Source of the DNA: a virus
Taxonomy: Duplodnaviria; Heunggongvirae; Uroviricota; Caudoviricetes
Strand: one strand, 5' to 3'
Length of the DNA stretch: 64,000 nucleotides
IMG/VR virus record: IMGVR_UViG_3300037419_002054
Location: 35,122 to 99,121 of that record
In this document: piece by piece, positions 23,651 to 63,787 of the stretch
How positions within the stretch are numbered: the first letter of the stretch is position 1
How the letters are laid out: the number at the start of each line of letters is the position of its first letter
Notes under the pieces: generated by a model
Databases searched by the model: none
What the model was told of the DNA's origin: nothing
What the model saw: only the letters and a program-made list of their open reading frames with translations
Program-made: the position numbers and the translations under genes

Positions 23651-23943
23651 TTCGAGTTGCTGTCCTTCGAGAGGGTATACAGGCCGTCACGGAAGACGGT
23701 CCAGAGGAACCTCCAGCCGACGAAGCTCAGCAGGAGGATGCCGTAGCTGATTTGCCAGACGAACGGCGTCGTGAGGCCGGCGATCCCCCAGGTGAGGAGG
23801 GTCCAGCCGGACAGGAGGGCGCATACGAGGAAGATCTCGCTCAGGTGCGATCCCACCCACGCAGGGGTAGCACGTACCCGAGCGAGGATGAGATCGCACC
23901 GCTTACGCAGACGGGCGCGGCGGGTGAGGGCGACCTCCATCAA
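23647..23943 (-). CDS. small membrane protein (98 aa, 2-3 predicted TM helices)
   Basis: Hydrophobic stretches LSEIFLVCALLSGWTLLTWGIAGL and ISYGILLLSFVGWRFLW. TGATG overlap with the TerL stop. Confidence 0.5.
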   Translation of the reverse strand: MMEVALTRRARLRKRCDLILARVRATPAWVGSHLSEIFLVCALLSGWTLLTWGIAGLTTPFVWQISYGILLLSFVGWRFLWTVFRDGLYTLSKDSNSK

Positions 23944-25472
23944 ACCCTCCCGATCCGGATGCGGGTCTCCGGGATATCGGCGAACGCCAGCATGATGGAC
24001 TCCGCCCGGTCCGGGCTCTTGACGCCGCGCTTCTTCATAGTATCCTTGTCCTCAATCACGATCTGCCCGCGGGAGTTGTGCTCGTACTTGATGGCCGCGA
24101 GCTGCGCCTTCGCGACGTCCGCCCCCTTGAAGTTGAGCCCAATCAGGTCTCCCTGTTCGAACCTCTCCCGGAGGCCCCAAAACAGCTCGGCCTTCAGGTT
24201 CTTGTACTTCTCCTTGTTCTTCGGGCTCTTCTTGGTGACCCCCGCGCCGACGTTCACCGGGATGATCCTGTAACCCTCGTCTTTCAGGTGCATCGCCATG
24301 TAGTGGCCGATGCCGACGGAGTCCACCATCCCCTTCTCGACGTTGTCCCGGAACGGAGCGAGCGCCGCGACGACCTTGCCGCGGGGGTCCGGGTCCTGCC
24401 ACGCGTGCTGCTCGAGGATGAGCGGACCCTTCCGGATCGTGAGCACGGTCTCGTCCTCTCCCGGGCCGGCCACGTCCAGCCCGAAGCGGATGCCGTCCGC
24501 AAGGTAGTCGGTCTTGCGCTTGGCCGAGGCGTTCTTCCCGTCGCCGGCCTCGTCGGCGTCGATCTCGAACTCGTCTTCGTTCCGGAGGATCCAGTCATCC
24601 AGCGTAGTGCGGGCGGCGTCCTCCAGCCATGCGAGCGAGATCAGCGAGTCCTCGGACTGGTCCGGGAACTGCCCGAGCACCTTCGAGCGGAACAGCGGGC
24701 TGTCCCAGCCCCACTCCAGGTAGCGTTCCTTCACCCACCGGCGGGTCACGAGGTACGGCCGGATGTTGTCGTCCAGCTCGTCCTCGCTCATCGAGAGGAG
24801 GTCATCCAGCGAGACGCCGGCGAGGTTCGGGGTGTCGAACGCGCTGATCGTCATCGGGTTGTACCCGATACGCTTGCCGGTATAGATCTCGTAGAACGGA
24901 CCCGTGGGCTCGATCGGGTTGCCGATCGCGAGGATGCGCACGTCACCGCCGGCTCGGATACCGTCGATGGCGTCCCACACCTCCGGACGCACGCCGGGGG
25001 CCTCGTCGAGGATGATCAGGATGCGGCCGTGCCAACCCTGGAACCGTACGCCCTTGTCCGTGGAGAGCCCCTGGGCGTAGTTCTTTGGCCCCATCTTGAG
25101 CTCGGTCAGGTTAGGCAGCGGATACAGCCCAGGGATGCGGCACTGCTGGAGGGACGCGTGGATCTCCCCCCAAAGCAGCTTCTCCACCTGCGTCCAGGTG
25201 GGGGCCGTCGTCACCACGACTCCGTCCGGGAAGCGGCTCACCCACCAGAGGGCGGCCATGGAGGCGGTCTTGGTCTTGCCGGAGGCGTGGCACGCCTTTA
25301 CTGCCGTGCTCTTGTTCGTTGCGACGGACCGCAGGATCTGCTGCTGGAGGCCGTACAGGTCTTCGCCGAAGAAGACCTTGGCGAAGTGCGCGGGGTCGCG
25401 GAGAGCCACGGCCATCCCGTACTGCATGGCCTCGGCTTCCGTCTTGAAGGTCTTGCCGTCGATCTCGTACAT
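23940..25472 (-). CDS. terminase large subunit
   Basis: 510 aa with Walker A-like ACHASGKT, ILDEA (Walker B) and a C-terminal nuclease region. Terminase_6-like. Confidence 0.9.
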   Translation of the reverse strand: MYEIDGKTFKTEAEAMQYGMAVALRDPAHFAKVFFGEDLYGLQQQILRSVATNKSTAVKACHASGKTKTASMAALWWVSRFPDGVVVTTAPTWTQVEKLLWGEIHASLQQCRIPGLYPLPNLTELKMGPKNYAQGLSTDKGVRFQGWHGRILIILDEAPGVRPEVWDAIDGIRAGGDVRILAIGNPIEPTGPFYEIYTGKRIGYNPMTISAFDTPNLAGVSLDDLLSMSEDELDDNIRPYLVTRRWVKERYLEWGWDSPLFRSKVLGQFPDQSEDSLISLAWLEDAARTTLDDWILRNEDEFEIDADEAGDGKNASAKRKTDYLADGIRFGLDVAGPGEDETVLTIRKGPLILEQHAWQDPDPRGKVVAALAPFRDNVEKGMVDSVGIGHYMAMHLKDEGYRIIPVNVGAGVTKKSPKNKEKYKNLKAELFWGLRERFEQGDLIGLNFKGADVAKAQLAAIKYEHNSRGQIVIEDKDTMKKRGVKSPDRAESIMLAFADIPETRIRIGRV

Positions 25473-29133: not shown

Positions 29134-29757
29134 CTACCGGCTCACGGTCTCGGTCGGGTTCTTCAGCAGGTCGGCCAGCTTCTCCAGGTCCGCCTGCGTC
29201 AGGTGGTACGTCACGATGTGCGGGCGGCGACTGGCCGTCTTGGGCGCCGAGTACCGGAGGATGCCGATCTTGCCGCCGTTCAGCACCTTCACGTCGTAGT
29301 GCGCGTCGACGCCGTTCTGGTAGCTCAGCTCGCCGTAGCCGGCCGCGCGGATCGGCTCGAGGATGGGGAGGATGTTCCCCGGGATCAGGACCGGCGGGCT
29401 GTTCCCGTACGTCACCTGCACCGTGCCGAACCCGCCGCTGACGAACGAGGCCACGCAGCCGTCGTGCATGACCGCGGTGCGGCTCTTCGTCTCGGTGATC
29501 GGGTACAGCTTCTTCAGGTGGGCCTCCACCTGCTCCTCGTGCACCGCGGTCGTGTACCGGCGGGTGCCGTGGCTGGTGTAGGGGTTCTCGCTCCGGCCGC
29601 GACGGTACGCCGCGCGGGCGATCTCCATCTCGCGCTCGCTCAGGGGCTGCACTTGCTTCTCCGTGGGGAGGGGGAATGGGAGGCACCGGCAGTTCGGATG
29701 CGCCCCGTAGACACCCGCATAGTAGCGGGCCTTTGCATTCGTGTTCGTGACCGGCAT
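29134..29757 (-). CDS. paralog family member 1 (207 aa), unknown function
   Basis: Shares AAYRRGRSE, KLYPITETKSRT and C-terminal LEKLADLLKNPTETVSR blocks with the two downstream genes. Confidence 0.6.
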   Translation of the reverse strand: MPVTNTNAKARYYAGVYGAHPNCRCLPFPLPTEKQVQPLSEREMEIARAAYRRGRSENPYTSHGTRRYTTAVHEEQVEAHLKKLYPITETKSRTAVMHDGCVASFVSGGFGTVQVTYGNSPPVLIPGNILPILEPIRAAGYGELSYQNGVDAHYDVKVLNGGKIGILRYSAPKTASRRPHIVTYHLTQADLEKLADLLKNPTETVSR

Positions 29758-29834
29758 CTTCGCTCCGGAAGGGATGACCGACCCCGGCAGTGTTCCCCGC
29801 CTCCGGCAGCATGTTCGGGCTTTAACAGAAAGTG

Positions 29835-29863
29835 TTGACTACCCCGTGGAGGACGTTTATATT
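29835..29863 (+). promoter_or_regulatory. sigma70-type promoter, plus-oriented family copy
   Basis: GAAAGTG-TTGACT-17nt-TATATT-tctccacggttgagc. Drives 29906..32589. Confidence 0.6.
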
Positions 29864-29905
29864 TCTCCACGGTTGAGCAAGCTACCCCGGACCCACGGAG
29901 ATCCG

Positions 29906-31900
29906 ATGACCGCCACCGCCGCCCCCGAGACCATCACCGCGACCTACCGGCTCCCGGAGGAGAACCAGCCGGAGCTGGAGCGCCGCCTCGCCAAGATCAA
30001 CCGCGCCGCCCGCAAGATCGGGGTTGCCGAGGTCACGTACCGCGTCCTCAGCACCACGGTGGAGAAGATCCGGAAGCCCGACTGCACGGGGTTCCTGGAG
30101 GATACCGGGCGCGTCCGTCGGGTCCATACCATCGAGGTCACGGGGGAGCGGCCGCAGATCTCCGGCTGGACCTTCATCGCCGCCCTCCGGCACTTCGGCG
30201 AGGACGGGACGATCGTGGCCGGCCTCCCCGGGTACGAGATCCCGGAGCGCTACCGGAACGCCGGGAGCGACTGTGACCACTGCGGTCACCGGCGCCAGCG
30301 GAACGACACCTACCTCCTGCAGAACGAGGCGGGGGAGATCAAGCAGGTCGGCTCCACCTGCCTCGTGGACTTCCTCGGCCACCCGGACCCGCATACGGTA
30401 GCCCGCATGTGTGAGTGGCTCCGCGAGATCGAGGTAGCCTGCGGAGACGAGGAGAGCTGGGGGATGCGCGGCGGGGACAACCTCTTCGACCTGCGCTGGT
30501 ACCTCGGGTGGGTGGCGCTGGCGACCCGGTGCTACGGCTGGGTTTCCCGGAAGCGCGCCCGGGAGCTCTCGGACGAGCGCGGCTACAGCGTCTCCTCCAC
30601 TTCCCAGTCCGCGTGGTTCCTGGAGGGGCTCACCAGCCGCGGCGGCGGGATGAGCGAGAGCGAGCGCCGGAAGGAGCTGGACAAGTTCGTCCGGCAGTTC
30701 GGGTTCCAGCCGGTGCCCTCGGAGGAGGACCGGGCGCTGGCCGAGGACGCGGTGGAGTGGGCGCTCGCGCTGGAGGAGCGGGAGGCGAGCCTCAACGAGT
30801 ACGAGCACAACCTCCTGGTGGTGGCCCGGATGGGGATCACGAACTGGAAGGTGATGGGGCTTGCGGCCTCGCTCATCGCCGCGTATAAGAAGGCGATGGA
30901 CCTGATCGAGGAGCGGACGCGTACCGCCCGCCCGGTCTCCCAGCACGTCGGGACCGTCGGCAAGCGCGAGGTCTTCACCGTAACCGTCCGGAAGGTGATC
31001 CCGCTCTCCAGCGACTTCGGCCCGTCCATCGGCCTCCACATCATGGAGACCCCGGAGGGGAACCGCCTGAAGTGGTTCGCCACCTCGGCCAAGGATCTGG
31101 AGGAGGGGAAGACCTACGTGGTGAAGGCCACGGTAAAGGAGCACGGGGAGTACAAGGGGAACTTGGAGACCGTGGTCAACCGCGTGGCGGTGGTCCGCGA
31201 GGTGGAGGAGGAACCCGCCGCACCCGCGGCGGAGACGGAGACCCCGGCGCCTGTGGAGGCGCCCCAGCCCGCTACCCAGGAGACGGAAGCGACGGAGCCC
31301 ATGAAGCGTTCCAGCACGGTGGAGAGCCCGGTCAAGCGGGTCCGCGAGATCGCCGCGGAGATGTACGCCGCGAACCCGCAGGTGTCCCGGAAGGAGGTCA
31401 TCGCCCGCTGCGTCTCGGAGGGGATCTCGCCGGCCACCGCGGCCACGCAGTACGGCCACTGGAAGCGGGCGCTGCCCGCGGCGGCGGAGACGCCGGGGGA
31501 GGGGAACGCTCCGGCGGCGCCGGAGGACGTTGTGGGGAAGATCAAGCTGTCCGGACCCCAGCGCGCCGCCCTTCTCGCCGTAGCGGCCGGCCGCGGCCCC
31601 TTCCCGGGGAAGCCCCGCACCCTCGGCATCCTGAAGGAGAACGGGCTGGTGGAGTACGACGGCGTCCCGCAGGAGGGGGTCGTACGGGGGTGGTACCTGA
31701 CCGAACAGGGCGCGGAGTGGGTGCGGCGGTGGCAGGCCACCCGGCCGCCGCTGGACGAAGGCGGAGAGGAGGAGACCACCGGGCAGGAGGAGGACGGCCC
31801 GGTGGTGGAGATCGACGGGTCGGCCCTCATCCAGGTCCCCGCCGGCCGCCGCCGGAAGAAGATGCCCGAGGAGCCGCCCACGCGGCGCCGGATTGCGTGA
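29906..31900 (+). CDS. large hypothetical protein (664 aa), first gene of plus-strand island 2
   Basis: ATG at 29906 with GGAG SD, 43 nt downstream of the plus-oriented promoter. Contains CDHCGH and Ala/Pro/Glu-rich linker segments. No recognisable domain. Confidence 0.6.
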   Translation: MTATAAPETITATYRLPEENQPELERRLAKINRAARKIGVAEVTYRVLSTTVEKIRKPDCTGFLEDTGRVRRVHTIEVTGERPQISGWTFIAALRHFGEDGTIVAGLPGYEIPERYRNAGSDCDHCGHRRQRNDTYLLQNEAGEIKQVGSTCLVDFLGHPDPHTVARMCEWLREIEVACGDEESWGMRGGDNLFDLRWYLGWVALATRCYGWVSRKRARELSDERGYSVSSTSQSAWFLEGLTSRGGGMSESERRKELDKFVRQFGFQPVPSEEDRALAEDAVEWALALEEREASLNEYEHNLLVVARMGITNWKVMGLAASLIAAYKKAMDLIEERTRTARPVSQHVGTVGKREVFTVTVRKVIPLSSDFGPSIGLHIMETPEGNRLKWFATSAKDLEEGKTYVVKATVKEHGEYKGNLETVVNRVAVVREVEEEPAAPAAETETPAPVEAPQPATQETEATEPMKRSSTVESPVKRVREIAAEMYAANPQVSRKEVIARCVSEGISPATAATQYGHWKRALPAAAETPGEGNAPAAPEDVVGKIKLSGPQRAALLAVAAGRGPFPGKPRTLGILKENGLVEYDGVPQEGVVRGWYLTEQGAEWVRRWQATRPPLDEGGEEETTGQEEDGPVVEIDGSALIQVPAGRRRKKMPEEPPTRRRIA

Positions 31901-34585: not shown

Positions 34586-35128
34586 TCAGAAGTTGCGCTT
34601 GGCGTTCTGCCCGGGGGTGTCGCCGTACATCCGGAACTGCCGGGCCGGGACGAGGTCGGTCAGGAAGACCCGCAGCACCTGCAGGCCCCAGCCGTCCATC
34701 GCCTCGTTCAGCTCCGCGACGAGCGCTGTCTCCAGCGCCTTCCGGTCCCGCTTCAGCTCCTGCCACGTCCGGGAGGCCACCGCGGTGGCGAGCGCCCCGA
34801 AGGCCATGTTCACGACCGAGTCGTCGAAGCGATAGATCTTGACCCAGCCGGCCCGGATGCTCGTGACCTTGTAGCAGACGTTCGCCGAGTAGACCACGGA
34901 CACCCCGTCCTCGGTGACGACCGAGCCGGTGGGGAGATCCACGGTCATGTCGGACCGCGTCGTCTTGTTGATCTCGTCGATGAAGGGGACGCGGAGATGC
35001 AGGCCCGGTTCCAGCTCCTCCCGTACCTTGCCGCAGCGCACCCGGAGACCCTGCTGCCACGTGTAGACGCGGGCCACCGGCCAGAACGCCATGAGGTTCT
35101 TGATGATGAACTCGATCAGGGCCTGCAC
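34586..35128 (-). CDS. SPFH/band-7 (stomatin/prohibitin-like) domain protein (180 aa)
   Basis: Hydrophobic N-terminus, then VPFIDEI..TRSDMTVDL...VSVVYSANVCYKV...ALATAVASRTWQELKRDRKALE...GLQVLRVFLTDL, matching the SPFH domain pattern. Confidence 0.55.
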   Translation of the reverse strand: MQALIEFIIKNLMAFWPVARVYTWQQGLRVRCGKVREELEPGLHLRVPFIDEINKTTRSDMTVDLPTGSVVTEDGVSVVYSANVCYKVTSIRAGWVKIYRFDDSVVNMAFGALATAVASRTWQELKRDRKALETALVAELNEAMDGWGLQVLRVFLTDLVPARQFRMYGDTPGQNAKRNF

Positions 35129-35778: not shown

Positions 35779-36546
35779 TCAGACGAGCCCCGTGGTCAGG
35801 TAGCGGTACAGCAGGTGGGTGTAGTCGTGCGCCATCTTGATCTCCGCCTCCTTCCCCTTCGGCAGGTGGACGATGACCGCCCCCTCCGTCGGGATGCCGA
35901 CCTCGGCCAGCATCAGGCGGTAGAGACCGACCTGCATACTGTACTTGTTGAGCTCGTTCCCCTCGAGGAAGTGGAACGGAGGCCGGAACCGCTCGAAGGA
36001 GAAGTCCTGGTTCGTCCGGATGCGCTTGTTGGTCTTCCAGTCGGCGATCCAGAAACGGCCATCCTTCTCCAGCAGGGCATCCAGCGTCCCGGAGAGCCCC
36101 CAGCGCAGGCTGAAGATCTTCCTCTCGCACGCGACCACGCGGAAGCCGGCGAAGTGTACCCCCCAGCCCCTCCACCACGCCGTAAGGCGGGCCTGGGCCT
36201 CCGGGAGGTGGGCGAGGCTCCGGATGACCTCTCCGGGGTCCTCTCCCGTGAACACCCGCTCGATACCGTCGTGTACCGCGTGCCCCAGCACCGTGGACTC
36301 CCGGGCGGTGGCCTCCCACTCCGCCAACACGTCGGCCGGGGAGCACTTCCGCTCCTCGGCCTTCCGTGCCGCCCAGTATTCCGCGTCGAACTCGTGCGTC
36401 CTTGCCTTGATCCAGCTGCTGACCGCGGTCAGCTCATGTTCCCCGTAGAAGTAGCGATGTTCCTCGGGGTTGATCCGGAACAGGGGGTCGTCGAACACCG
36501 TGAGCCGGTGCCGGACGTAATCAAACCATTGATCAGCTACCTTCAC
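35779..36546 (-). CDS. PD-(D/E)xK nuclease superfamily protein (RecB/Cas4-like exonuclease, 255 aa)
   Basis: Motifs ...FRVVACERKI... and IADWKTNK (D-x-K) are typical of PDDEXK_1 phage exonucleases. Confidence 0.55.
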   Translation of the reverse strand: MKVADQWFDYVRHRLTVFDDPLFRINPEEHRYFYGEHELTAVSSWIKARTHEFDAEYWAARKAEERKCSPADVLAEWEATARESTVLGHAVHDGIERVFTGEDPGEVIRSLAHLPEAQARLTAWWRGWGVHFAGFRVVACERKIFSLRWGLSGTLDALLEKDGRFWIADWKTNKRIRTNQDFSFERFRPPFHFLEGNELNKYSMQVGLYRLMLAEVGIPTEGAVIVHLPKGKEAEIKMAHDYTHLLYRYLTTGLV

Positions 36547-48418: not shown

Positions 48419-48466
48419 CCTGCCTCCTCATGAAAGGGGTTGGACTGCGTCCGACCTACGTGGAGA

Positions 48467-48495
48467 ATAATACACGAATCCCCTCCCGGAGTCAA
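48467..48495 (-). promoter_or_regulatory. cassette promoter (minus) with hairpin over -35
   Basis: TTGACT-17-TATTAT; arms 48477-48487 / 48505-48513. Confidence 0.6.
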
Positions 48496-48526
48496 CAACT
48501 TCCGAGAGGGGATTTCATCGATGCGG

Positions 48527-50088: not shown

Positions 50089-50134
50089 CGGGATCTCCCG
50101 CGGTAGGGGGTAAAGGGCCACTCAACCTGTGAGG

Positions 50135-50163
50135 ATAATACACGGAGCCTCCTCCGGAGTCAA
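50135..50163 (-). promoter_or_regulatory. cassette promoter (minus) with covarying hairpin
   Basis: TTGACT-17-TATTAT. Arms GAGCCTCCTCCGG / CCGGAGGAGGC (50145-50181) have different sequence but the same structure. Confidence 0.6.
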
Positions 50164-50195
50164 CATCTTCCGGAGGAGGCCGGGCCTTATGGATC

Positions 50196-50687
50196 TCAGC
50201 TGACGTAGGGCTTCAGCTCCGGGTGCTGCCGGAGGCAGTCCGGGCCAATCGGAAGACCGCCGACGTATCCGGCGTCATTCACGTCCGCGCTTCCCGGAAC
50301 CGCGGCGTAGGCGCCACCGTCCACCACCTCCAGGTAGTGGCGGGGGTTCTTCACCTCCCGGCCGCAGACCACGCAGGGGTCCTTCTCGCAGGGCTCCCGG
50401 TAGGGCTTTGTCGACTCCGGGATGCGCACGCGGGGCTCGGGGATGAGGAGAGCCGCCGGGACGGCGCAGGTGAACTTCTTGAACCGGACCAGCGCCAGCT
50501 GCACGCCGTCCCCGCAGATGGCGCGGAGCCCGGCCGCGCGCTCCTGCTCAGACGGCGTGGAGTCCCGGAGGCCGAGAACGACGCCGGCCGTTCCCACCAC
50601 GGGCGCGTCCTGGATCTCGCGCGCCTGCAGGTCCGCGTACGCCGCGGGGGTCATGAAGATCTTGGCGCCCTTGGTAATCTCCGTCAT
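50196..50687 (-). CDS. hypothetical protein (163 aa)
   Basis: Downstream of the cassette promoter at 50732-50760. Confidence 0.5.
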   Translation of the reverse strand: MTEITKGAKIFMTPAAYADLQAREIQDAPVVGTAGVVLGLRDSTPSEQERAAGLRAICGDGVQLALVRFKKFTCAVPAALLIPEPRVRIPESTKPYREPCEKDPCVVCGREVKNPRHYLEVVDGGAYAAVPGSADVNDAGYVGGLPIGPDCLRQHPELKPYVS

Positions 50688-50731
50688 CTCTCCGCTCTCC
50701 GTTTGGGGGTGGACCGCTCAACCATGGGAGA

Positions 50732-50760
50732 ATAATACACGAATCCTCTCCGATGGTCAA
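50732..50760 (-). promoter_or_regulatory. cassette promoter (minus) with covarying hairpin
   Basis: TTGACC-17-TATTAT. Arms GAATCCTCTCCG / CGGAGAGGATTTC (50741-50782). Confidence 0.6.
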
Positions 50761-50803
50761 CACTTTCTGCGGAGAGGATTTCGTTGACGGGTGACGGAGC
50801 AGG

Positions 50804-51401: not shown

Positions 51402-51653
51402 TCAGCGGCCGGCGGCGGTCCCGCGACGGTCCTCGGCGTCCGCGAGGATCTCCACGAGTTCCTTCATCCACTCCTCGAGGGTGAGGTCCGCGAGGAGGTA
51501 GACGTTCACGCTGGTGGTGAAGGCGCCTTCTACGGCGGCGCCGGTGAAGTAGAAGTACCCGGAGCCCTTCACCAGCTGGGCGTCGATTCCGGCGGCGCGG
51601 ATCACCTTGTTGACGTCGGCCACGGCGCGGGGATAGCGCTGCATGTTAGGCAT
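51402..51653 (-). CDS. hypothetical protein (83 aa)
   Basis: ATG 51651-51653, 41 nt downstream of the cassette promoter at 51695-51723. Confidence 0.45.
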   Translation of the reverse strand: MPNMQRYPRAVADVNKVIRAAGIDAQLVKGSGYFYFTGAAVEGAFTTSVNVYLLADLTLEEWMKELVEILADAEDRRGTAAGR

Positions 51654-51694
51654 CGGGGTCTCTCCGTTTGGGTGCGCTCTCTCAACCTTGGGAG

Positions 51695-51723
51695 AATAAT
51701 ACACGAATCCCCTCCCGGCGTCA
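51695..51723 (-). promoter_or_regulatory. cassette promoter (minus) with hairpin
   Basis: TTGACG-17-TATTAT. Arms 51704-51714 / 51734-51743. Conserved leader CTCCCAAGGTTGAGAGAGCGCACCC. Confidence 0.65.
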
Positions 51724-51862
51724 ACACTTTCCGAGAGGGGATTTCACTGACCGCTATCGCTTCCGTTCCGGCGGCCCCCACGTGAACCCGATGAACCACC
51801 GCCAGAGGACGAAGCCGACCCCCGGCCGGCCCTCCACGTCGTGTATCCCGAACCGGGGCATT

Positions 51863-52298: not shown

Positions 52299-52348
52299 GA
52301 CGGGGGCTCCCGTTGGGGTAGTGGGTGCGCTCTCTCAACCTGTGGAGA

Positions 52349-52378
52349 AAGATACACGCACCCACCTCCCGTGGTCAA
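52349..52378 (-). promoter_or_regulatory. cassette promoter (minus), degenerate copy
   Basis: TTGACC-18-TATCTT; leader CTCCACAGGTTGAGAGAGCGCACCC. Only a weak 7-bp inverted repeat. Confidence 0.45.
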
Positions 52379-52620
52379 CAGTTTCCGTTCTCTCCCTCCT
52401 CCGGGAGGATGGGTTCGCGGCACCGCTTGCAGGTGGAGTCGTACTGCTCCGGGTAGGTCTCCAGTAGGTAGTCCAGCTCACCGGAGTCCAGCGGGTACGC
52501 CTGGGTACGCTCGGTGCGATCCTTCTTCGCCTCCCCCTCCCGAATGCTCTCGCCGCAGGAGGGGCAGAGGATCATGCTCGCGTCCCCGATCCCGTAGATG
52601 TAGGCGACGGTCTTGCTCAC
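52375..52620 (-). CDS. zinc-ribbon protein (about 81 aa)
   Basis: GTG start in a GTGA overlap. CPSCGES...CKRCREP. Confidence 0.4.
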   Translation of the reverse strand: MSKTVAYIYGIGDASMILCPSCGESIREGEAKKDRTERTQAYPLDSGELDYLLETYPEQYDSTCKRCREPILPEEGENGNC

Positions 52621-53036: not shown

Positions 53037-53082
53037 GGTGCACCTCCTGCGGGTAAGGGGTAGGACTGCTCAACCTGTGAGG

Positions 53083-53111
53083 ATAATACACGGCACCCAA
53101 CCCCGCGTCAA
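53083..53111 (-). promoter_or_regulatory. cassette promoter (minus) preceded by a separate terminator hairpin
   Basis: TTGACG-17-TATTAT. Upstream (minus) GGGGAGGGGCC...GGCTCCTCCCC hairpin at 53117-53143, then UUUCUG. Confidence 0.6.
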
Positions 53112-53171
53112 CAGAAAGGGGAGGAGCCTCTCGGCCCCTCCCCCTCCCTTCGGTTCAGCCTCGCTCCGCGC

Positions 53172-53864
53172 TCAGCGGTGCGTGGTATCCCTCGAGGCCG
53201 CCACGGTGCCGTCGGCCGGCGCGCCGAAGTCGATGGCCTCCTCCTTCCCCGTCTCGAAGGAGTGCAGCGTTCGGTCGTCGAGCACCTGCGTACGGATCAT
53301 CTGCAGCGCGGCCTCGCCGGTGACGAACCCGTCGCCCTTGCGCACCCGGAGGACGTTGCTGGGGAAGTACATCTTCACGAAGAACGGGCGGATCACGCCG
53401 TCGTTCGTCCACGCGTCGTACACGGCCACCCGCTGCGCCAGCTCGTCCTGCTTGTTCTTGAACTCGGTACGGCCGGCGCTGATCGCGTCGAAGAGCCGGT
53501 CCTGGGCCTTGGCGAGCTGCGACAGGTCCGGGTACGCCTCGCGCATCGCGGAGATCAGCTGGCCGTTGCTCTGGAAGCCGCCGGTGCCGTACCGCCCCTG
53601 CACCGCGTCGCGCAACACGGTGTCGAGCTGGGCGCTCTGGACCCGGACGATGCCGGCCTGCTCCTTCACCGTCTTCACGTAGGTCGAGAGCGCGTTCTGG
53701 TTGGCCGTGTACTGCGCCGCCAGCTGCGTCTCCTGCCGGATTCCCTCCCGCTTGACGCTTCCGACGTAGCCGAAGGCGCCCACCAGGAGGACGACGACCG
53801 CCGCGAGGGCGATCCCGCCGATCGCGAGGCAGCCGAGGCCCGCGGCCTTGCCCGTGTTGCTCAT
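53172..53864 (-). CDS. LemA-family-like membrane protein (about 230 aa)
   Basis: ATG 53862-53864 (MSNTGKAAGLGCLAIGGIALAAVVVLLVGAF): single N-terminal TM followed by a Gln/Ala-rich soluble domain, typical of LemA. Confidence 0.45.
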   Translation of the reverse strand: MSNTGKAAGLGCLAIGGIALAAVVVLLVGAFGYVGSVKREGIRQETQLAAQYTANQNALSTYVKTVKEQAGIVRVQSAQLDTVLRDAVQGRYGTGGFQSNGQLISAMREAYPDLSQLAKAQDRLFDAISAGRTEFKNKQDELAQRVAVYDAWTNDGVIRPFFVKMYFPSNVLRVRKGDGFVTGEAALQMIRTQVLDDRTLHSFETGKEEAIDFGAPADGTVAASRDTTHR

Positions 53865-53895
53865 TCTGTTGATCCCCGAGGGATGGAGGGTTTGC

Positions 53896-55323
53896 CTACC
53901 GCAGCCCGCGGTAGGGACGGAACGCCGGGACGGAGGAGTACCGCCGCCGGTTGGGCTCACCGAAGAACGCCGCGCCGCCCCAGGCGACGAGCGAGCCCGC
54001 GAGAGCAATGAGGAAGATCCAGACCTTCGCCTTCGTGGACGGCTGGATCTCTCCCTTCAGGTACAGGTAGCCCCCGCCGTGGGAGTCTCCGTTCATACTG
54101 ACCCGGGCGAACCGCGTGGCGGGGTTCTCGAGGCCGAAGACGACGGACTCGATCACGCCGTTCCCGTGGAGGGAGGTCACGGCCTGCCCGCGGATCTGTC
54201 CGCGTACGGAACCCACCACGGCCTCCGGGGTGAGCGGAGTACCCGCAAGCCGGCGGTTGAGCACCGTCGTCATCAACTCGTTGCCGGAGGGCATCCCGGT
54301 CACGGCTCGGCCCCACGCGGCGGTCTTCCCGTCCAGCGTACCCACGGCCACGATGATGGTGTTCTTCGCCGCCGTGTTCCGGTCGAACGCGGTCACGTCC
54401 TGCCAGCGGGCCTTCAGTGCCATGATGTAGGCGTCCGCGTTCGGGACCTTCTTCGCGTCCACGAGGACGAGGAGGAGATCCCCGCGGAGCTCGTTGCCGA
54501 GTGCTGCGTTCAGCTTGCCCACCGCGTCCTGCCACGCCCGCGCGTTGGGCGGCACGAACCCGGCGAACACCACCTTGTCCGAGAGGTAGTGCGAGTAGAT
54601 GTTGCTCGGGACCGCGGGCAGCAGCTGCCGGGAGAGGAACGAGTTCACGTCCGAACTGCGCTCCTGTAGGATCGTGCCGTCCGAGGCGAGGATGTAGTTC
54701 TTGTAAGTCGCTCGCTTCACGACGGGTCCGGGGTTCCCGGAGAGGACCCGCTCGCGCGCCTGGGACCAGAACGCGGGGTAGCCCGTACCGGCGTTCGAGA
54801 TCACGCTGGAGGGGAGATCCTCGCCGCGCTCCGGCTCCCACCTCTCGCTGTGCGGGTTGGCCGGGAAGCGGCCGGAGTCGATCAGGTACTCGCCCAGGGT
54901 CGTCTGCACGTAGTACGCCCACTCGGTCCGGACGTACGGGCAGTGATGGTACTCGGTCGTGTAGTACGTCGTGCACGAGCGGGTCTTCCCGCTCCCCGAG
55001 CAGGAGGTGTGCGAAACGAGGTACGGATCGCAGTTGTAGCAGTGCTGACAGCTGCCGTCCCGGGTGCAGTTCGTCGGCACCGCCCGGACGCCGGACTCCC
55101 ACCCGTTGTGGAACTCGTTGAACGTCAGCTTGGCGTCCACCGCCGTCTTCCAGCCCAGGCCCACGCTCAACGGGACGATGAGGAGGGAGATGGCAAGGCC
55201 GTAGCCGAGCAGCTCCGCGCGGGAGATCTGCAGGCCGTGCTCGGGGTGCGTGTCGAGGTACCACTTGAGCGCGGCGCCGGCCCCGAAGGCGGCGACGAGG
55301 GACCAGAATCCGATGACCCACAT
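53896..55323 (-). CDS. large membrane protein (about 475 aa) with N- and C-terminal TM helices and a Cys-rich ectodomain segment; possible TPM-like partner of LemA
   Basis: ATG 55321-55323 (MWVIGFWSLVAAFGAGAAL). Cys cluster NCTRDGSCQHCYNCDPY...CSGSGKTRSCTTYYTTEYHHCPY. C-terminal TM VWIFLIALAGSLVAWGGAAFFG. Confidence 0.45.
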   Translation of the reverse strand: MWVIGFWSLVAAFGAGAALKWYLDTHPEHGLQISRAELLGYGLAISLLIVPLSVGLGWKTAVDAKLTFNEFHNGWESGVRAVPTNCTRDGSCQHCYNCDPYLVSHTSCSGSGKTRSCTTYYTTEYHHCPYVRTEWAYYVQTTLGEYLIDSGRFPANPHSERWEPERGEDLPSSVISNAGTGYPAFWSQARERVLSGNPGPVVKRATYKNYILASDGTILQERSSDVNSFLSRQLLPAVPSNIYSHYLSDKVVFAGFVPPNARAWQDAVGKLNAALGNELRGDLLLVLVDAKKVPNADAYIMALKARWQDVTAFDRNTAAKNTIIVAVGTLDGKTAAWGRAVTGMPSGNELMTTVLNRRLAGTPLTPEAVVGSVRGQIRGQAVTSLHGNGVIESVVFGLENPATRFARVSMNGDSHGGGYLYLKGEIQPSTKAKVWIFLIALAGSLVAWGGAAFFGEPNRRRYSSVPAFRPYRGLR

Positions 55324-55384
55324 AAGGCTGTGTCCGGGGGAAAGGGATGGAGGGAACCGGCGGCTAAGTGCTCCGCCGGTCCCG

Positions 55385-55795
55385 TCACTGTTCGTCCTTC
55401 GCGGCCGCGATCCGCTCAACGGTGAGGAGGAGGTCAAGGAGGGCCTGCAGCTCCGGTTGCCACGCCCAGTCCTCCAGCGCCGGCTCCATCGCCTCCAGGA
55501 GCTCGTTTAGCGCCTCGCGGACCTTCTCCTGCATGATCTCTCCGGCCTGCTCCAGCGCGTAGCGGATGAGCGCGGCGCACGCCTCGTCCCGCATCCTCTC
55601 GCAGAACTCGAAGGCGTCGCCGCCCGGCGCGAAGCCCGAGGGCCGGTAGGTGAGGACCGCCCACTGCTTCTCCACCACACGGTCCGCCATCCGCCGCGCC
55701 CGGCCGCTGAGCGTGGAGGCGTGCCGGGTGAGGAACGGCCGGTACTCCCGCGGGAGCCGGGCGCGGAGTACCGGGGAGCAGAACGGGTCCAGCAT
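55385..55795 (-). CDS. hypothetical protein (136 aa)
   Basis: ATG 55793-55795 (MLDPFCSPVL). Confidence 0.4.
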   Translation of the reverse strand: MLDPFCSPVLRARLPREYRPFLTRHASTLSGRARRMADRVVEKQWAVLTYRPSGFAPGGDAFEFCERMRDEACAALIRYALEQAGEIMQEKVREALNELLEAMEPALEDWAWQPELQALLDLLLTVERIAAAKDEQ

Positions 55796-55796
55796 C

Positions 55797-55961
55797 TCAG
55801 TAGTCCTGACGCTCGCGGACCTTCCGGTCCTCCTCAAGCCGGTGCTCGACGGCGTCGTTGAACGCGTCCTCGAGGGCCACGCGTTGCTCGACCGTGAGGC
55901 CGCCGACGGCGTCCGCCAGCAGCTTCACGAACTTCTCGGTGGGGGTCAGTTCCACCAGCAT
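55797..55961 (-). CDS. hypothetical small protein (54 aa)
   Basis: Not in the ORF track. Verified translation MLVELTPTEKFVKLLADAVGGLTVEQRVALEDAFNDAVEHRLEEDRKVRERQDY. Downstream of the cassette promoter at 56006-56034. Confidence 0.4.
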   Translation of the reverse strand: MLVELTPTEKFVKLLADAVGGLTVEQRVALEDAFNDAVEHRLEEDRKVRERQDY

Positions 55962-56005
55962 CTTGTCCTCCCGGGTGCGGGGGTGCGCTCTCTCAACCGT
56001 GGAGA

Positions 56006-56034
56006 ATAGTACACGAATCCCCCGGACTGGTCAA
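56006..56034 (-). promoter_or_regulatory. cassette promoter (minus) with covarying hairpin
   Basis: TTGACC-17-TACTAT. Arms GAATCCCCCGG / CGGGGGATTC (56016-56055). Leader CTCCACGGTTGAGAGAGCGCACCC. Confidence 0.6.
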
Positions 56035-56075
56035 CACTTTCAGCTCGGGGGATTCGTCGTAGGGGTCGGTAGCGT

Positions 56076-58545: not shown

Positions 58546-58830
58546 TCATGCCTCCGGGGCGAGGGAGGTGGGCGCCGACTTGACCCGCGTCCCCATCCGC
58601 ACCCGCACGATGTTCACCCCGTGCCCCTCCTTCGCGCGGTACGCCTTCCAGTCCGGGCGGTCGTTGATCCACCCGCGGGCGCCGGCGATGGTCCCCCAGG
58701 TCTTCGCGTCCTCCACATAGGTGGACAGCTCCCCCTCCATGTGCATCCCGACCTGACGGGAGACGTAGCGCGGGGCGTTCGGGACCTGCGGGAAGACGAC
58801 CTGGATGGCGTAGCGGAAGGTCTCGGTCAT
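58546..58830 (-). CDS. hypothetical protein (94 aa)
   Basis: Downstream of the cassette promoter at 58875-58903. Its 3'UTR contains a G14 tract and a terminator. Confidence 0.5.
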   Translation of the reverse strand: MTETFRYAIQVVFPQVPNAPRYVSRQVGMHMEGELSTYVEDAKTWGTIAGARGWINDRPDWKAYRAKEGHGVNIVRVRMGTRVKSAPTSLAPEA

Positions 58831-58874
58831 CGTTGGATTCTCCGTTGGGGGTGCGCTCTCTCAACCTGGGGAGA

Positions 58875-58903
58875 ATAATACACGCATCCCCTCCATTGGT
58901 CAA
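58875..58903 (-). promoter_or_regulatory. cassette promoter (minus) with covarying hairpin
   Basis: TTGACC-17-TATTAT. Perfect 11-bp arms GCATCCCCTCC / GGAGGGGATGC (58884-58926). Confidence 0.65.
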
Positions 58904-58947
58904 CACTTTCTGACGGAGGGGATGCGCTATCCGACCGGGCAGGGAGC

Positions 58948-59834: not shown

Positions 59835-59879
59835 CTTCGGTTCTCCGTGGGCTTGGGTGTGTCCGCTCAACCTGTATCT

Positions 59880-59908
59880 AATATACAACGATCCCCCGCC
59901 GTGGTCAA
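59880..59908 (-). promoter_or_regulatory. cassette promoter (minus) with covarying hairpin
   Basis: TTGACC-17-TATATT. Arms GATCCCCCGCCG / CGACGGGGGATC (59891-59928). Confidence 0.6.
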
Positions 59909-59948
59909 CACCTTTCGACGGGGGATCTTTTTGATCGGTCCAGCGGGG

Positions 59949-61411: not shown

Positions 61412-63787
61412 TCACCCGCACTGGCTGTAGCCGGAGCACATCGGGCACTTCACGCAGCCCTCCTTGTACGTCAGCTCCGAGCTGCACTCCGGGCACGTAC
61501 CGAAGAAGCTCTTCCCCAGCTCCTCCAGGACCGTCCGGGTGATCTCGCCCACGTCCACCTGCACCGAGATCGAGAGCCCGGAAGGGCTCCACGCCTCCAG
61601 CGCCTGGGCGATCGCGTCCGGGAGGCTCGAGACCTTGTTCTCCCCGAAGCCCACGGCGCGGTCCGAGCTGATCCCGCGCAGCTGCATGATGATCTCCCGG
61701 TGCGAGACACCGGAGCGCATCGCGAGGGAGATCAGCCGGCCGAGCGCCTCGCACTCCGCGGCGACGATGCTGCCGGCCTTGCCGACGACGATGAAGACCT
61801 CGAAGGGCTTCCCCTCGTGCTCCGAGATGGTGATGAACGCGTCCCCGACCGGGGTCGTCATCTCCCGCGTGGAGCTCGAGAGGACAGCCGGGCGCGCCCG
61901 CGGCACGGCCGGAGCCGGCTTCTCGTCGGCCTTCTTGTCCTTGTCCGTCTTGCCGGTGCTCAGCACCTGCCCGGAGCGGGAGCCGTCCCGGTACACGGTC
62001 ACGCCCTTGCACTTCGCACGGTACGCCTGCAGGTACACCTCCCGCACGTCCGCCTCGGTGGCCTCCGTGGGGAAATTCGTCGTCTTGCTGATCGCCGAGT
62101 CCGTGTACTTCTGCCACGCGGCCTGCACGGCGACGTGCTCCGCCGGGGTCACGTCGTGGGCGGTACGGAACAGCCGCTGGATCTGCTCCGGCACCTCGTC
62201 GAAGTGGATGTGCCCCTCCTCCTTGATCCTCTCCATCAGCTCGTCGGAGAAGAAGCCCCACGCCTTCGCGATCCGCACGAAGTCCTCGTTCACGTCCGTC
62301 ATGTACGCGCCGGCCTGATTGCGCATGAACGTGACCGCGAAGAGGGGCTCGATCCCGCCGCTGCAGTTGGCGAAGAGGCTGATCGTGCCGGTCGGCGCCA
62401 CCGTGTTCACGTTGCAGTTGCGCAGGCGGCGCTCGGGGCGGATGCGGTTCCCGTCGGCGTCCCGGGCGCACGTGGCGTCCGGACCCCAGATCGAGCGCTC
62501 CCACTCCGGGAAGGTGCCGCGCTTCTCGGCCAGCTCCTCCGAGGCGGCCTTCTCCACCGAGTCGATGTAGGCGGCCAGCTCCTCCGTCACGCGGATCGCC
62601 TCGGCCGAGCCGTACGGGATGCCCAGCCGCACGAGCAGATCCGCGTAGCCCATCACGCCGTTGCCGATCCGGCGGATGCGCTGTGCGAGGTCGGTGATCT
62701 CCGGGAGCGGGTAGCAGTTCGCGTCGATCACGTTGTCGAGGAAGTGCGTGCTCAGACGCAGCACCTGCCGCAGGCGTCCCCACTTGATCCGCGCGTTCCA
62801 GTCCTCGAGGTCATCCGCCTCCAGGTCGACGAAGGCGCCGAGGTTGGCGGAGCCGAGGTTGCAGACGTCGAAGGCGAGGAGCGGTTGCTCGCCGCAGGGG
62901 TTCGTCGCCTCGTAGCTGCCCAGGTGGGGCACGGGGTTGTAGCGGTTGGCCTCGTCGATGAAGAACAGGCCCGGCTCGCCGGTCGCCCAGGCGTTCTTGA
63001 TGATGAGGTCCAGCACCTCGTTCGCGTCCAGCTCGCCGGCCTTCTCGCCGGTGCGGGGGTCGCGCAGCGGGTAGGTGGTCCCCGCCTCCACGGCGCGCAT
63101 GAACTCGTCCGTGACGGCGACGGAGATGTTGAAGTTCGTGTTCTTGCTCGTGTCCGCCTTGCAGGTGATGAAGGCGAGCACGTCGGGGTGGTCGACCCGG
63201 AGGATGCCCATGTTGGCCCCGCGGCGGGTGCCTCCCTGCTTCACCACCTCGGTCGAGGCGTCGTACAGCCCCATGAAGCTGACGGGGCCGGAGGCGACGC
63301 CCATCGTGCTCCGGACGACCGCCCCGGACGGGCGCAGGCGCGAGAAGCTGAACCCGGTGCCGCCGCCGGACTGGTGCACCAGCGCCATGGACTTCAGGGT
63401 GTCGTAGATCCCGGCCTTGTAGCCGTTCCTCCCATCCGACGACAGCGCGTCCTCCACGGGCAGCACGAAGCACGCCGAAAGCTGCCCGAGCGGGCGGCCG
63501 GCGTTCATCAGGGTGGGGGTGTTGGGCTCCCACTCCCCGCGGACCATCATCTCGTAGAAGTCCCGCGCGAGCTGCGTGACCTCCTCCTCCGTCGCGCCGT
63601 ACTTGGCGTCGACCGCGGCGATCGTGTAGGCCACCCGCCAGAACATGTCCTCGGGCTCCTCCGTCACCTTCCCGGCGTCGTCCTTCATCAGGTAACGCTT
63701 CGCGAGCACGATGCGGGCGTTATCCGACAGCAGCGCGGCCGGGAGGTCGTCCGGCCGCGCGGGGAGCGCGGTGTTCACTTCTGCCAT
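61412..63787 (-). CDS. nrdJ: class II (adenosylcobalamin-dependent) ribonucleotide reductase
   Basis: 791 aa with N-terminal ...NARIVLAKRYL..., catalytic-core motifs, and a C-terminal zinc ribbon CPECSSELTYKEGCVKCPMCSGYSQCG typical of NrdJ. Confidence 0.85.
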   Translation of the reverse strand: MAEVNTALPARPDDLPAALLSDNARIVLAKRYLMKDDAGKVTEEPEDMFWRVAYTIAAVDAKYGATEEEVTQLARDFYEMMVRGEWEPNTPTLMNAGRPLGQLSACFVLPVEDALSSDGRNGYKAGIYDTLKSMALVHQSGGGTGFSFSRLRPSGAVVRSTMGVASGPVSFMGLYDASTEVVKQGGTRRGANMGILRVDHPDVLAFITCKADTSKNTNFNISVAVTDEFMRAVEAGTTYPLRDPRTGEKAGELDANEVLDLIIKNAWATGEPGLFFIDEANRYNPVPHLGSYEATNPCGEQPLLAFDVCNLGSANLGAFVDLEADDLEDWNARIKWGRLRQVLRLSTHFLDNVIDANCYPLPEITDLAQRIRRIGNGVMGYADLLVRLGIPYGSAEAIRVTEELAAYIDSVEKAASEELAEKRGTFPEWERSIWGPDATCARDADGNRIRPERRLRNCNVNTVAPTGTISLFANCSGGIEPLFAVTFMRNQAGAYMTDVNEDFVRIAKAWGFFSDELMERIKEEGHIHFDEVPEQIQRLFRTAHDVTPAEHVAVQAAWQKYTDSAISKTTNFPTEATEADVREVYLQAYRAKCKGVTVYRDGSRSGQVLSTGKTDKDKKADEKPAPAVPRARPAVLSSSTREMTTPVGDAFITISEHEGKPFEVFIVVGKAGSIVAAECEALGRLISLAMRSGVSHREIIMQLRGISSDRAVGFGENKVSSLPDAIAQALEAWSPSGLSISVQVDVGEITRTVLEELGKSFFGTCPECSSELTYKEGCVKCPMCSGYSQCG

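Follow-up and report, generated by a model that had tools for sequence, protein, structure and literature searches.

A putative LemA-like protein and a TPM-fold membrane partner encoded as a pair in a metagenomic tailed phage

LemA and TPM-domain proteins are widespread, and neither has an agreed function. The question addressed here is whether two adjacent genes of a tailed phage (Caudoviricetes) encode a version of this pair of bacterial membrane proteins, and what a phage might do with it. The genes are located at positions 53172-55323 of a 64,000-nt stretch, referred to below as the window, which covers positions 35,122 to 99,121 of IMG/VR record IMGVR_UViG_3300037419_002054. A first-pass annotation, made from the sequence alone, had proposed a LemA-like protein adjacent to a large, Cys-rich membrane protein reminiscent of TPM-domain proteins. 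The two genes, here named SMALL (53172..53864, minus strand, 230 amino acids (aa)) and BIG (53896..55323, minus strand, 475 aa), very probably encode a divergent LemA-like protein and a TPM-fold polytopic partner, which form one module. The earlier structural guess was a good one, recoverable only by remote-homology and fold methods.

Both open reading frames (ORFs) start with ATG and lie on the minus strand where they had been placed, and all four peptide strings quoted in the first-pass annotation are found in their translations. The genes are co-directional and separated by 31 nt, and their GC content at third codon positions (GC3), 0.91-0.92, is that of real genes of a 67% GC genome. An identical pair has been assembled independently in other metagenomes, where the gene calls are also of 475 and 230 aa.

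The two proteins and their remote relatives

SMALL matches PHROG 1383 (phrog_1383, 'virion structural protein') with an E value of 2.5e-26. As originally proposed, it carries a single N-terminal transmembrane (TM) segment, located at aa 10-32 (53769..53837, minus strand) by the AlphaFold2 (AF2) model and a hydrophobic window, and a single TM is likewise found in 58/58 family members examined. The anchor is followed by a putative LemA-like helical domain at aa 36-171 (53352..53759, minus strand), delimited by hhalign alignments and consensus sequences. The AF2 model (pLDDT 83) shows helices at residues 7-70, 78-89, 96-110 and 114-154; fold searches with this model did not retrieve 2ETD, the structure of a LemA protein.

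The relationship emerges from profile comparisons. When the profile of the SMALL family, built on 58 sequences, was compared with PDB, the top match was 2ETD ('lemA protein', E 0.0013), covering nearly the whole domain. An hhalign comparison with an alignment of canonical LemA, composed of seven proteins taken from plasmids, gave a probability of 97.6% (E 4e-12) over 147 columns; with the TM helices trimmed, the probability was 95.8% (E 7e-9, score 57.6), to be compared with at most 0.4% and a score of at most 14.6 for 20 column-shuffled controls. The SMALL profile matched the single 2ETD sequence with a probability of 83%. The Pfam LemA model is weakly matched by 9 of the 58 relatives (best E 1.4e-4), being the family most often matched, and HMMs of the SMALL and LemA families cross-match reciprocally. 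The LemA motif E-x-Y-P-D-L(-K) is kept in SMALL as REAYPDL, as is the Arg aligned to that of the LemA R..YN motif. Taken together, these profile-level results support the view that SMALL is a remote member of the LemA superfamily; of the earlier assignment, superfamily membership stood, while membership of the LemA family as defined by Pfam did not.

Labels in current use for the SMALL family are inconsistent, and include 'virion structural protein', 'LemA', 'LEMA protein', 'putative structural protein' and 'hypothetical protein' in RefSeq records and in Salmonella phage Guerrero (locus L065); UniRef names one phage homologue 'LemA family protein'. A Citrobacter plasmid pair, annotated as a hypothetical 355-aa protein and LemA, was considered as a possible bridge and found to be unrelated to BIG and SMALL.

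BIG matches PHROG 2087 (phrog_2087, function not assigned; E 2.1e-18), is covered by neither a Pfam nor an NCBIfam model, and carries the label 'hypothetical' in the listed phage records. Its AF2 model (pLDDT 90, pTM 0.81) consists of two N-terminal TM helices, long beta hairpins with a Cys cluster, a helical linker, an alpha/beta domain and a C-terminal TM helix. Where two TM helices had originally been counted, three hydrophobic segments are found, at residues 1-19, 38-56 and 436-454. They correspond to TM1 (about aa 2-25, AF2 helix 2-25; 55249..55320), TM2 (about aa 38-58, AF2 helix 35-66; 55150..55212) and a C-terminal TM (about aa 430-453, AF2 helix 430-453; 53965..54036), followed by an Arg-rich (K/R-rich) tail, all on the minus strand. 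The dense Cys/His cluster described earlier was found again, with 7 Cys and 4 His in residues 86-128, where 31 relatives all keep C86, C92, C98 and C128. It belongs to a Cys-rich beta-hairpin domain, aa 67-153 (54865..55125, minus strand), defined by AF2 strands at 67-85, 100-109, 116-125, 133-141 and 144-153 and by the invariant Cys columns. The predicted TPM-fold domain covers approximately aa 251-385 (54169..54573, minus strand). Invariant polar or aromatic motifs are unusually many in BIG: RDG, CDPY, YHxCPY, NYILASD, SKN, TGMPxGNE and RVSM, of which SKN and TGMPxGNE are contained in the TPM-fold domain.

The register of this domain on the TPM proteins is topologically sensible, in that TGMPxGNE corresponds approximately to the TPM GYGLE loop and SKN-IIVV to the preceding TPM strand. 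As judged from its model, BIG is TPM-like by fold and falls outside PF04536 as defined, so that the TPM claim holds for the fold and fails for the Pfam family. The LemA partner of a C. difficile plasmid proved not to be a TPM protein and was removed from the TPM alignment. NCBIfam scans of BIG and SMALL gave nothing usable, and weak library matches to Mce4_CUP1, YpeB and anti-sigma models were attributed to helical or TM segments and rejected as noise.

The membrane topology was predicted by counting Lys and Arg residues (K/R), and the placement of BIG and SMALL domains outside the cytoplasm derives from such positive-inside counts only. In the BIG family, the K/R count is 0.06 for the N-terminus, 2.3 for the TM1-TM2 loop and 2.7 for the short C-tail, suggesting an arrangement with the N-terminus out, the loop in, the ectodomain out and the tail in. 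In the SMALL family, 34 members carry more K/R in the N-flank than in the flank after the TM, and 6 show the opposite bias, which points to an orientation with the N-terminus in and the C-terminus out. Conserved Cys residues in a BIG domain located outside would fit disulfides; a metal site is also possible.

Conservation and distribution of the gene pair

Clustering at 50% left 767 BIG representatives among 1.84 billion proteins. None of 50 retrieved homologues contains a Pfam domain, and the most similar full-length ones are 44-47% identical to BIG. Within GTDB genomes, BIG is found in many lineages of Patescibacteria (candidate phyla radiation, CPR), in Melainabacteria/Obscuribacterales and in a few other metagenome-assembled genomes (MAGs). 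A local HMM scan, performed on the loci obtained, revealed that the gene order of the window is conserved: in 35/35 genome loci and in 5/7 loci from IMG/VR, SMALL directly follows BIG on the same strand, the two IMG/VR exceptions containing only a BIG fragment. Stop and start codons of the two genes often overlap. The pairing is far above chance, and in all 40 loci where both genes are present the TPM-fold gene precedes the LemA-like one.

The chromosomal pairs are flanked by housekeeping genes, such as those for RRF, RseP, MurG, MreB and HolB. No third conserved partner was revealed by all-vs-all clustering of the neighbours or by a Pfam scan of 133 flanking proteins, among which the most frequent family, RRF, is represented by 3 members. 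An adjacency to mreB and mur genes, seen in the first loci, was not general across loci.

The first-pass annotation had described such membrane pairs as cellular and not typical of phages. This view is wrong, as the pair is present in approximately 480-500 of 50,697 phage records (about 1%), where some depositors already name SMALL homologues 'LemA' or 'LEMA protein'. Carriers include Ackermannviridae, Vibrio phage ICP1, Aeromonas T4-likes, Acinetobacter phages and jumbo phages of Erwinia, Pectobacterium, Escherichia and Xanthomonas; the pair was seen in Aeh1, Serratia 3M, Xoo-sp13, ICP1 and Kuttervirus. The BIG proteins of cultured phages are of a short form, 351-385 aa in length and 23-28% identical, in which the TM layout and the Cys cluster are kept. 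The window pair is of a long type, 35-47% identical to its CPR relatives, and among the cultured phages of the database none has the long form of BIG.

Some of the cellular loci show peculiar features. In MAGs of Melainabacteria/Obscuribacterales (loci L050-L058 and L062), the pair is found as a tandem duplicate, BIG-SMALL-BIG-SMALL, and two SMALL genes come after one BIG in L062; the SMALL copies of these lineages are those which most often cross-match the canonical LemA HMM. The pair is also present in high-GC cellular contigs, namely L013 (GCA_002838085.1, 67% GC), where it adjoins genes for an RskA-like anti-sigma factor, Lgt and a Band_7 protein, and L060, an Anaerolineales MAG with 68% GC. 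The module thus also occurs outside CPR bacteria and Melainabacteria, and a high-GC lineage may have been the source of the phage copy.

Transcription unit and genomic context

The window is a 67% GC tailed-phage segment, where nearly all genes are located on the minus strand. BIG and SMALL are flanked by ORFans and lie between a ribonucleotide reductase gene (61412-63787) and a terminase gene (23940-25472), about 28 kb upstream of the latter; portal, head-morphogenesis, tape-measure and tail genes follow further downstream. When the BIG-SMALL locus and 24 kb of the window were compared by megablast with the 50,697 phage records, no relative was found at the nucleotide level.

A promoter scan of the region near the two genes detected exactly 2 sites, against 0.3 expected, both belonging to the repeat family described below. 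The upstream one, a sigma-70-like element (TTGACC-17-TACTAT; 56006..56034, minus strand), would serve the BIG/SMALL unit; the other (TTGACG-17-TATTAT; 53083..53111, minus strand) marks its downstream boundary. Right after the SMALL stop codon, a 16-bp GC-rich hairpin, followed by UUUCUGUU, is a likely terminator (53113..53148, minus strand; RNA fold -40 kcal/mol, z -2.9). Upstream of BIG, the gene calls of the independent assembly include two minus-strand ORFans, of 54 aa (55797-55961) and 136 aa (55385-55795), neither of which has a PHROG or Pfam match. The promoter-like sites at 56034 and 53111, together with the hairpin, indicate a four-gene unit in which BIG and SMALL come last. The layout of promoter and terminator suggests early expression of this unit.

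The region between 48 and 60 kb contains nine copies of an intergenic element of 60-90 nt, located at 48446-48517, 50114-50185, 50678-50782, 51642-51746, 52318-52387, 53053-53126, 55952-56056, 58821-58925 and 59859-59930. Each, when read on the coding (minus) strand, includes a GC-rich hairpin with TTGAC in the loop or in the 3' arm, about 17 nt, a TATTAT sequence, and then a conserved GGTTGAGAGAGCGCACCC-like box. The nine elements look like early promoters set in stem-loops, as terminator/promoter or operator units.

A further sequence is shared by the leaders of the two genes. The exact 11-mer CCCTCCATCCC has only two copies in the window, at 53880-53890 and 55344-55354 (minus strand), 15 nt before the start codon of SMALL and 20 nt before that of BIG, respectively. 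It is complementary to the Shine-Dalgarno-like sequence GGAGGG, and BIG has no obvious Shine-Dalgarno sequence. With one mismatch allowed, counts in the window equal those expected by chance. The 11-mer may serve both genes as a translational control element, or its presence in both leaders may be coincidental.

Other genes of the window deserve mention. A 180-aa SPFH/Band 7 (prohibitin/flotillin-like) protein is encoded at 34586-35128 (minus strand; Pfam Band_7, E 2.3e-23), a second 'cellular' membrane-scaffold gene of this phage genome, and a gene of the PD-(D/E)XK nuclease family lies nearby (35779-36546, minus strand; Pfam E 3.4e-9). A 719-aa ORF with GC3 0.92, located at 29741-31900 on the plus strand, opposite to almost all genes, matches PHROG 2319 (function not assigned; E 1e-74).

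Possible functions and comparison with known systems

The favoured reading combines a four-gene early unit, a two-protein membrane module and a scaffold or chaperone role, and a probability of about 0.55 is assigned to it as a whole. BIG and SMALL would constitute a self-contained module, deeply divergent from and related to the bacterial LemA and TPM pair. SMALL would cross the membrane once, in type-II orientation, and carry a LemA-like helical ectodomain. BIG would be anchored by its N-terminal TM hairpin and its C-terminal TM, displaying between them a disulfide- or metal-stabilised Cys-rich beta stalk and the TPM-fold domain. The soluble parts of both proteins would meet outside the cytoplasmic membrane in a stoichiometric complex, possibly acting as a non-enzymatic extracytoplasmic scaffold or chaperone, which stabilises or remodels membrane or envelope complexes. 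By making the pair early, the phage might keep the host membrane functional, or condition it, until lysis. TPM proteins have been linked to the repair or assembly of membrane complexes, such as photosystem II, a respiratory supercomplex and, for YdjH, a system involving PspA, and a chaperone-like function, instead of phosphatase activity, has been proposed for them (PMC11237479; bioRxiv 10.1101/2025.01.14.632903). It is on account of these links that a scaffold or chaperone role is favoured for BIG and SMALL; as a separate proposal, made by analogy, this role is a tentative one.

Several observations weigh against the reading. Neither of the window proteins matches the Pfam model proposed for it, LemA (PF04011) or TPM (PF04536), at E<=1, and no TPM match at this threshold was obtained for 31 BIG relatives. 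The hhalign comparison of BIG with ten TPM sequences yielded probabilities of 4-8% and scores of 24-26, barely above shuffled controls (up to 18.3), so that homology, as opposed to convergence of fold, is not proven, common ancestry of BIG and TPM proteins being likely. In the canonical lemA-TPM operon lemA comes first, whereas the BIG-SMALL order is reversed, with SMALL downstream. The K/R bias of the window SMALL runs contrary to the trend of its family, which makes its orientation ambiguous. With its many invariant polar residues, BIG might be an enzyme or have a specific ligand site, instead of being a passive scaffold. Finally, literature searches on LemA and TPM in phages found no functional study, and no experiment on any member.

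A different role, in phage-phage or phage-host conflict, would make the pair a membrane guard, acting in superinfection exclusion or, in an rII-like manner, against membrane-depolarising abortive infection. The first-pass annotation had suggested superinfection exclusion or envelope-stress manipulation, which for BIG and SMALL is speculation. Both products are membrane proteins of an early-type unit, the pair recurs in large lytic phages, and in both Ackermannviridae genomes examined it lies beside rIIA/rIIB in the same orientation, this adjacency being the only hint of a conflict role. However, relatives with 35-47% identity are found among housekeeping genes of CPR and Melainabacteria chromosomes, which favours a basic cellular function over a weapon specific to phages; a PADLOC scan of the two proteins at E<=1 matched no defence-system component, and no experiment was found. 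A conflict role is consequently held to be unlikely. Slightly less credit is given to the idea of an enzymatic BIG ectodomain, such as a phosphatase or nucleotidase, or of one that binds a specific envelope lipid or peptidoglycan precursor, with regulation by SMALL. The abundance of invariant polar or aromatic residues would be explained in this way, and a few CPR loci adjoin murG, murA, mreB or mltG. Some TPM proteins have been reported as phosphatases or ATPases, according to works cited in PMC11237479, but the phosphatase claim is disputed (bioRxiv 10.1101/2025.01.14.632903). Furthermore, no catalytic motif was recognised in BIG, and cell-wall neighbours are inconsistent, since no Pfam family occurs in more than 3 of the 133 neighbouring proteins.

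Lysis and virion functions are both disfavoured because of gene context, TM anchors and chromosomal homologues. A part in the lysis machinery, as holin/antiholin, spanin-like protein or lysis-timing device, had been mentioned as an alternative in the first-pass annotation. A type-II membrane protein with a helical ectodomain would suit it, and SMALL weakly matches an Rz-like spanin PHROG (E 0.0022) at residues 18-69 only; this match, however, essentially covers the TM helix. No endolysin, o-spanin or lipoprotein partner is present nearby; the neighbours are ORFans, and the early-promoter region in which they lie precedes the terminase gene by about 28 kb. The copies in CPR and Melainabacteria chromosomes have no lysis context. 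The lysis alternative is therefore unsupported and very improbable. Even lower is the chance that SMALL is a virion structural protein, as PHROG 1383 and many RefSeq phage records would have it. That label seems a propagated annotation, and is at odds with the N-terminal TM anchor, with the location in a non-structural region here, with the constant coupling to a polytopic membrane protein, and with the close SMALL homologues encoded by cellular chromosomes.

A bolder reading is considered doubtful. The pair would be an ancient autonomous membrane-maintenance machine of CPR bacteria, Melainabacteria and large phages, the latter using it early to hold the host membrane potential and envelope integrity against depolarising abortive-infection systems or premature lysis. 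CPR bacteria appear to be without many envelope-stress systems. If the pair does condition the host membrane, it would represent a new class of phage auxiliary function and would also hint at how CPR bacteria maintain their membranes. The carriers include tractable model phages, such as ICP1, Kuttervirus and Aeromonas T4-likes, and the function of the module is thus directly testable; should the pair be a membrane-maintenance machine, a mechanism obtained from ICP1 or Kuttervirus would give the whole LemA/TPM superfamily its first function grounded in experiment. Independently of function, a previously unannotated family, BIG, is now tied to the LemA/TPM superfamily, the propagated labelling of its LemA-like partner, often as a virion structural protein, is corrected, and a closed two-gene module is seen to be common to reduced CPR genomes and the largest phages.

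The pair is a divergent form of a known, functionally uncharacterised LemA-TPM pair. LemA itself (PF04011; 2ETD, Thermotoga maritima TM0961) has, like SMALL, a single N-terminal TM and, after it, a helical domain of about 140 aa, and is encoded beside a TPM-fold membrane protein; the E-x-Y-P-D-L motif and a downstream R...Y segment are common to both. SMALL differs by a Pfam score below threshold, by the missing RRxDLIPNLV motif, and by about 50 additional C-terminal residues, which include a beta hairpin and invariant P and G residues. TPM proteins (PF04536), such as AtTLP18.3 (3PW9), Psb32 (8C7I), Rhom172 (7TBR), BA41/BA42, YgcG and B. subtilis YdjH, have no significant sequence similarity to BIG. 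Relative to them, BIG has an N-terminal two-TM hairpin, an insertion of about 185 aa before the core, made of the Cys-rich beta domain and the helical linker, and about 45 aa more after the core, and has no Gly/Ser-rich tail.

Among phages, the pairs of PHROG 1383 and PHROG 2087 (Serratia 3M gp005/gp006, Aeh1 p306/p307, ICP1, Kuttervirus Guerrero gp209/gp210) belong to the same families as the window pair and have the same order and orientation, with conserved TM layout, Cys cluster and C-terminal motifs; unlike the window BIG, the short PHROG 2087 proteins of cultured phages have no CTRDG segment and only part of the linker. The closest relatives are the chromosomal pairs of Patescibacteria and Melainabacteria, which are collinear over the full length and identical in gene order to the window pair. 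Those pairs are cellular, with housekeeping flanks and, in Melainabacteria, tandem duplicates, whereas the window copy is located in what appears to be a phage early region, behind putative phage promoters.

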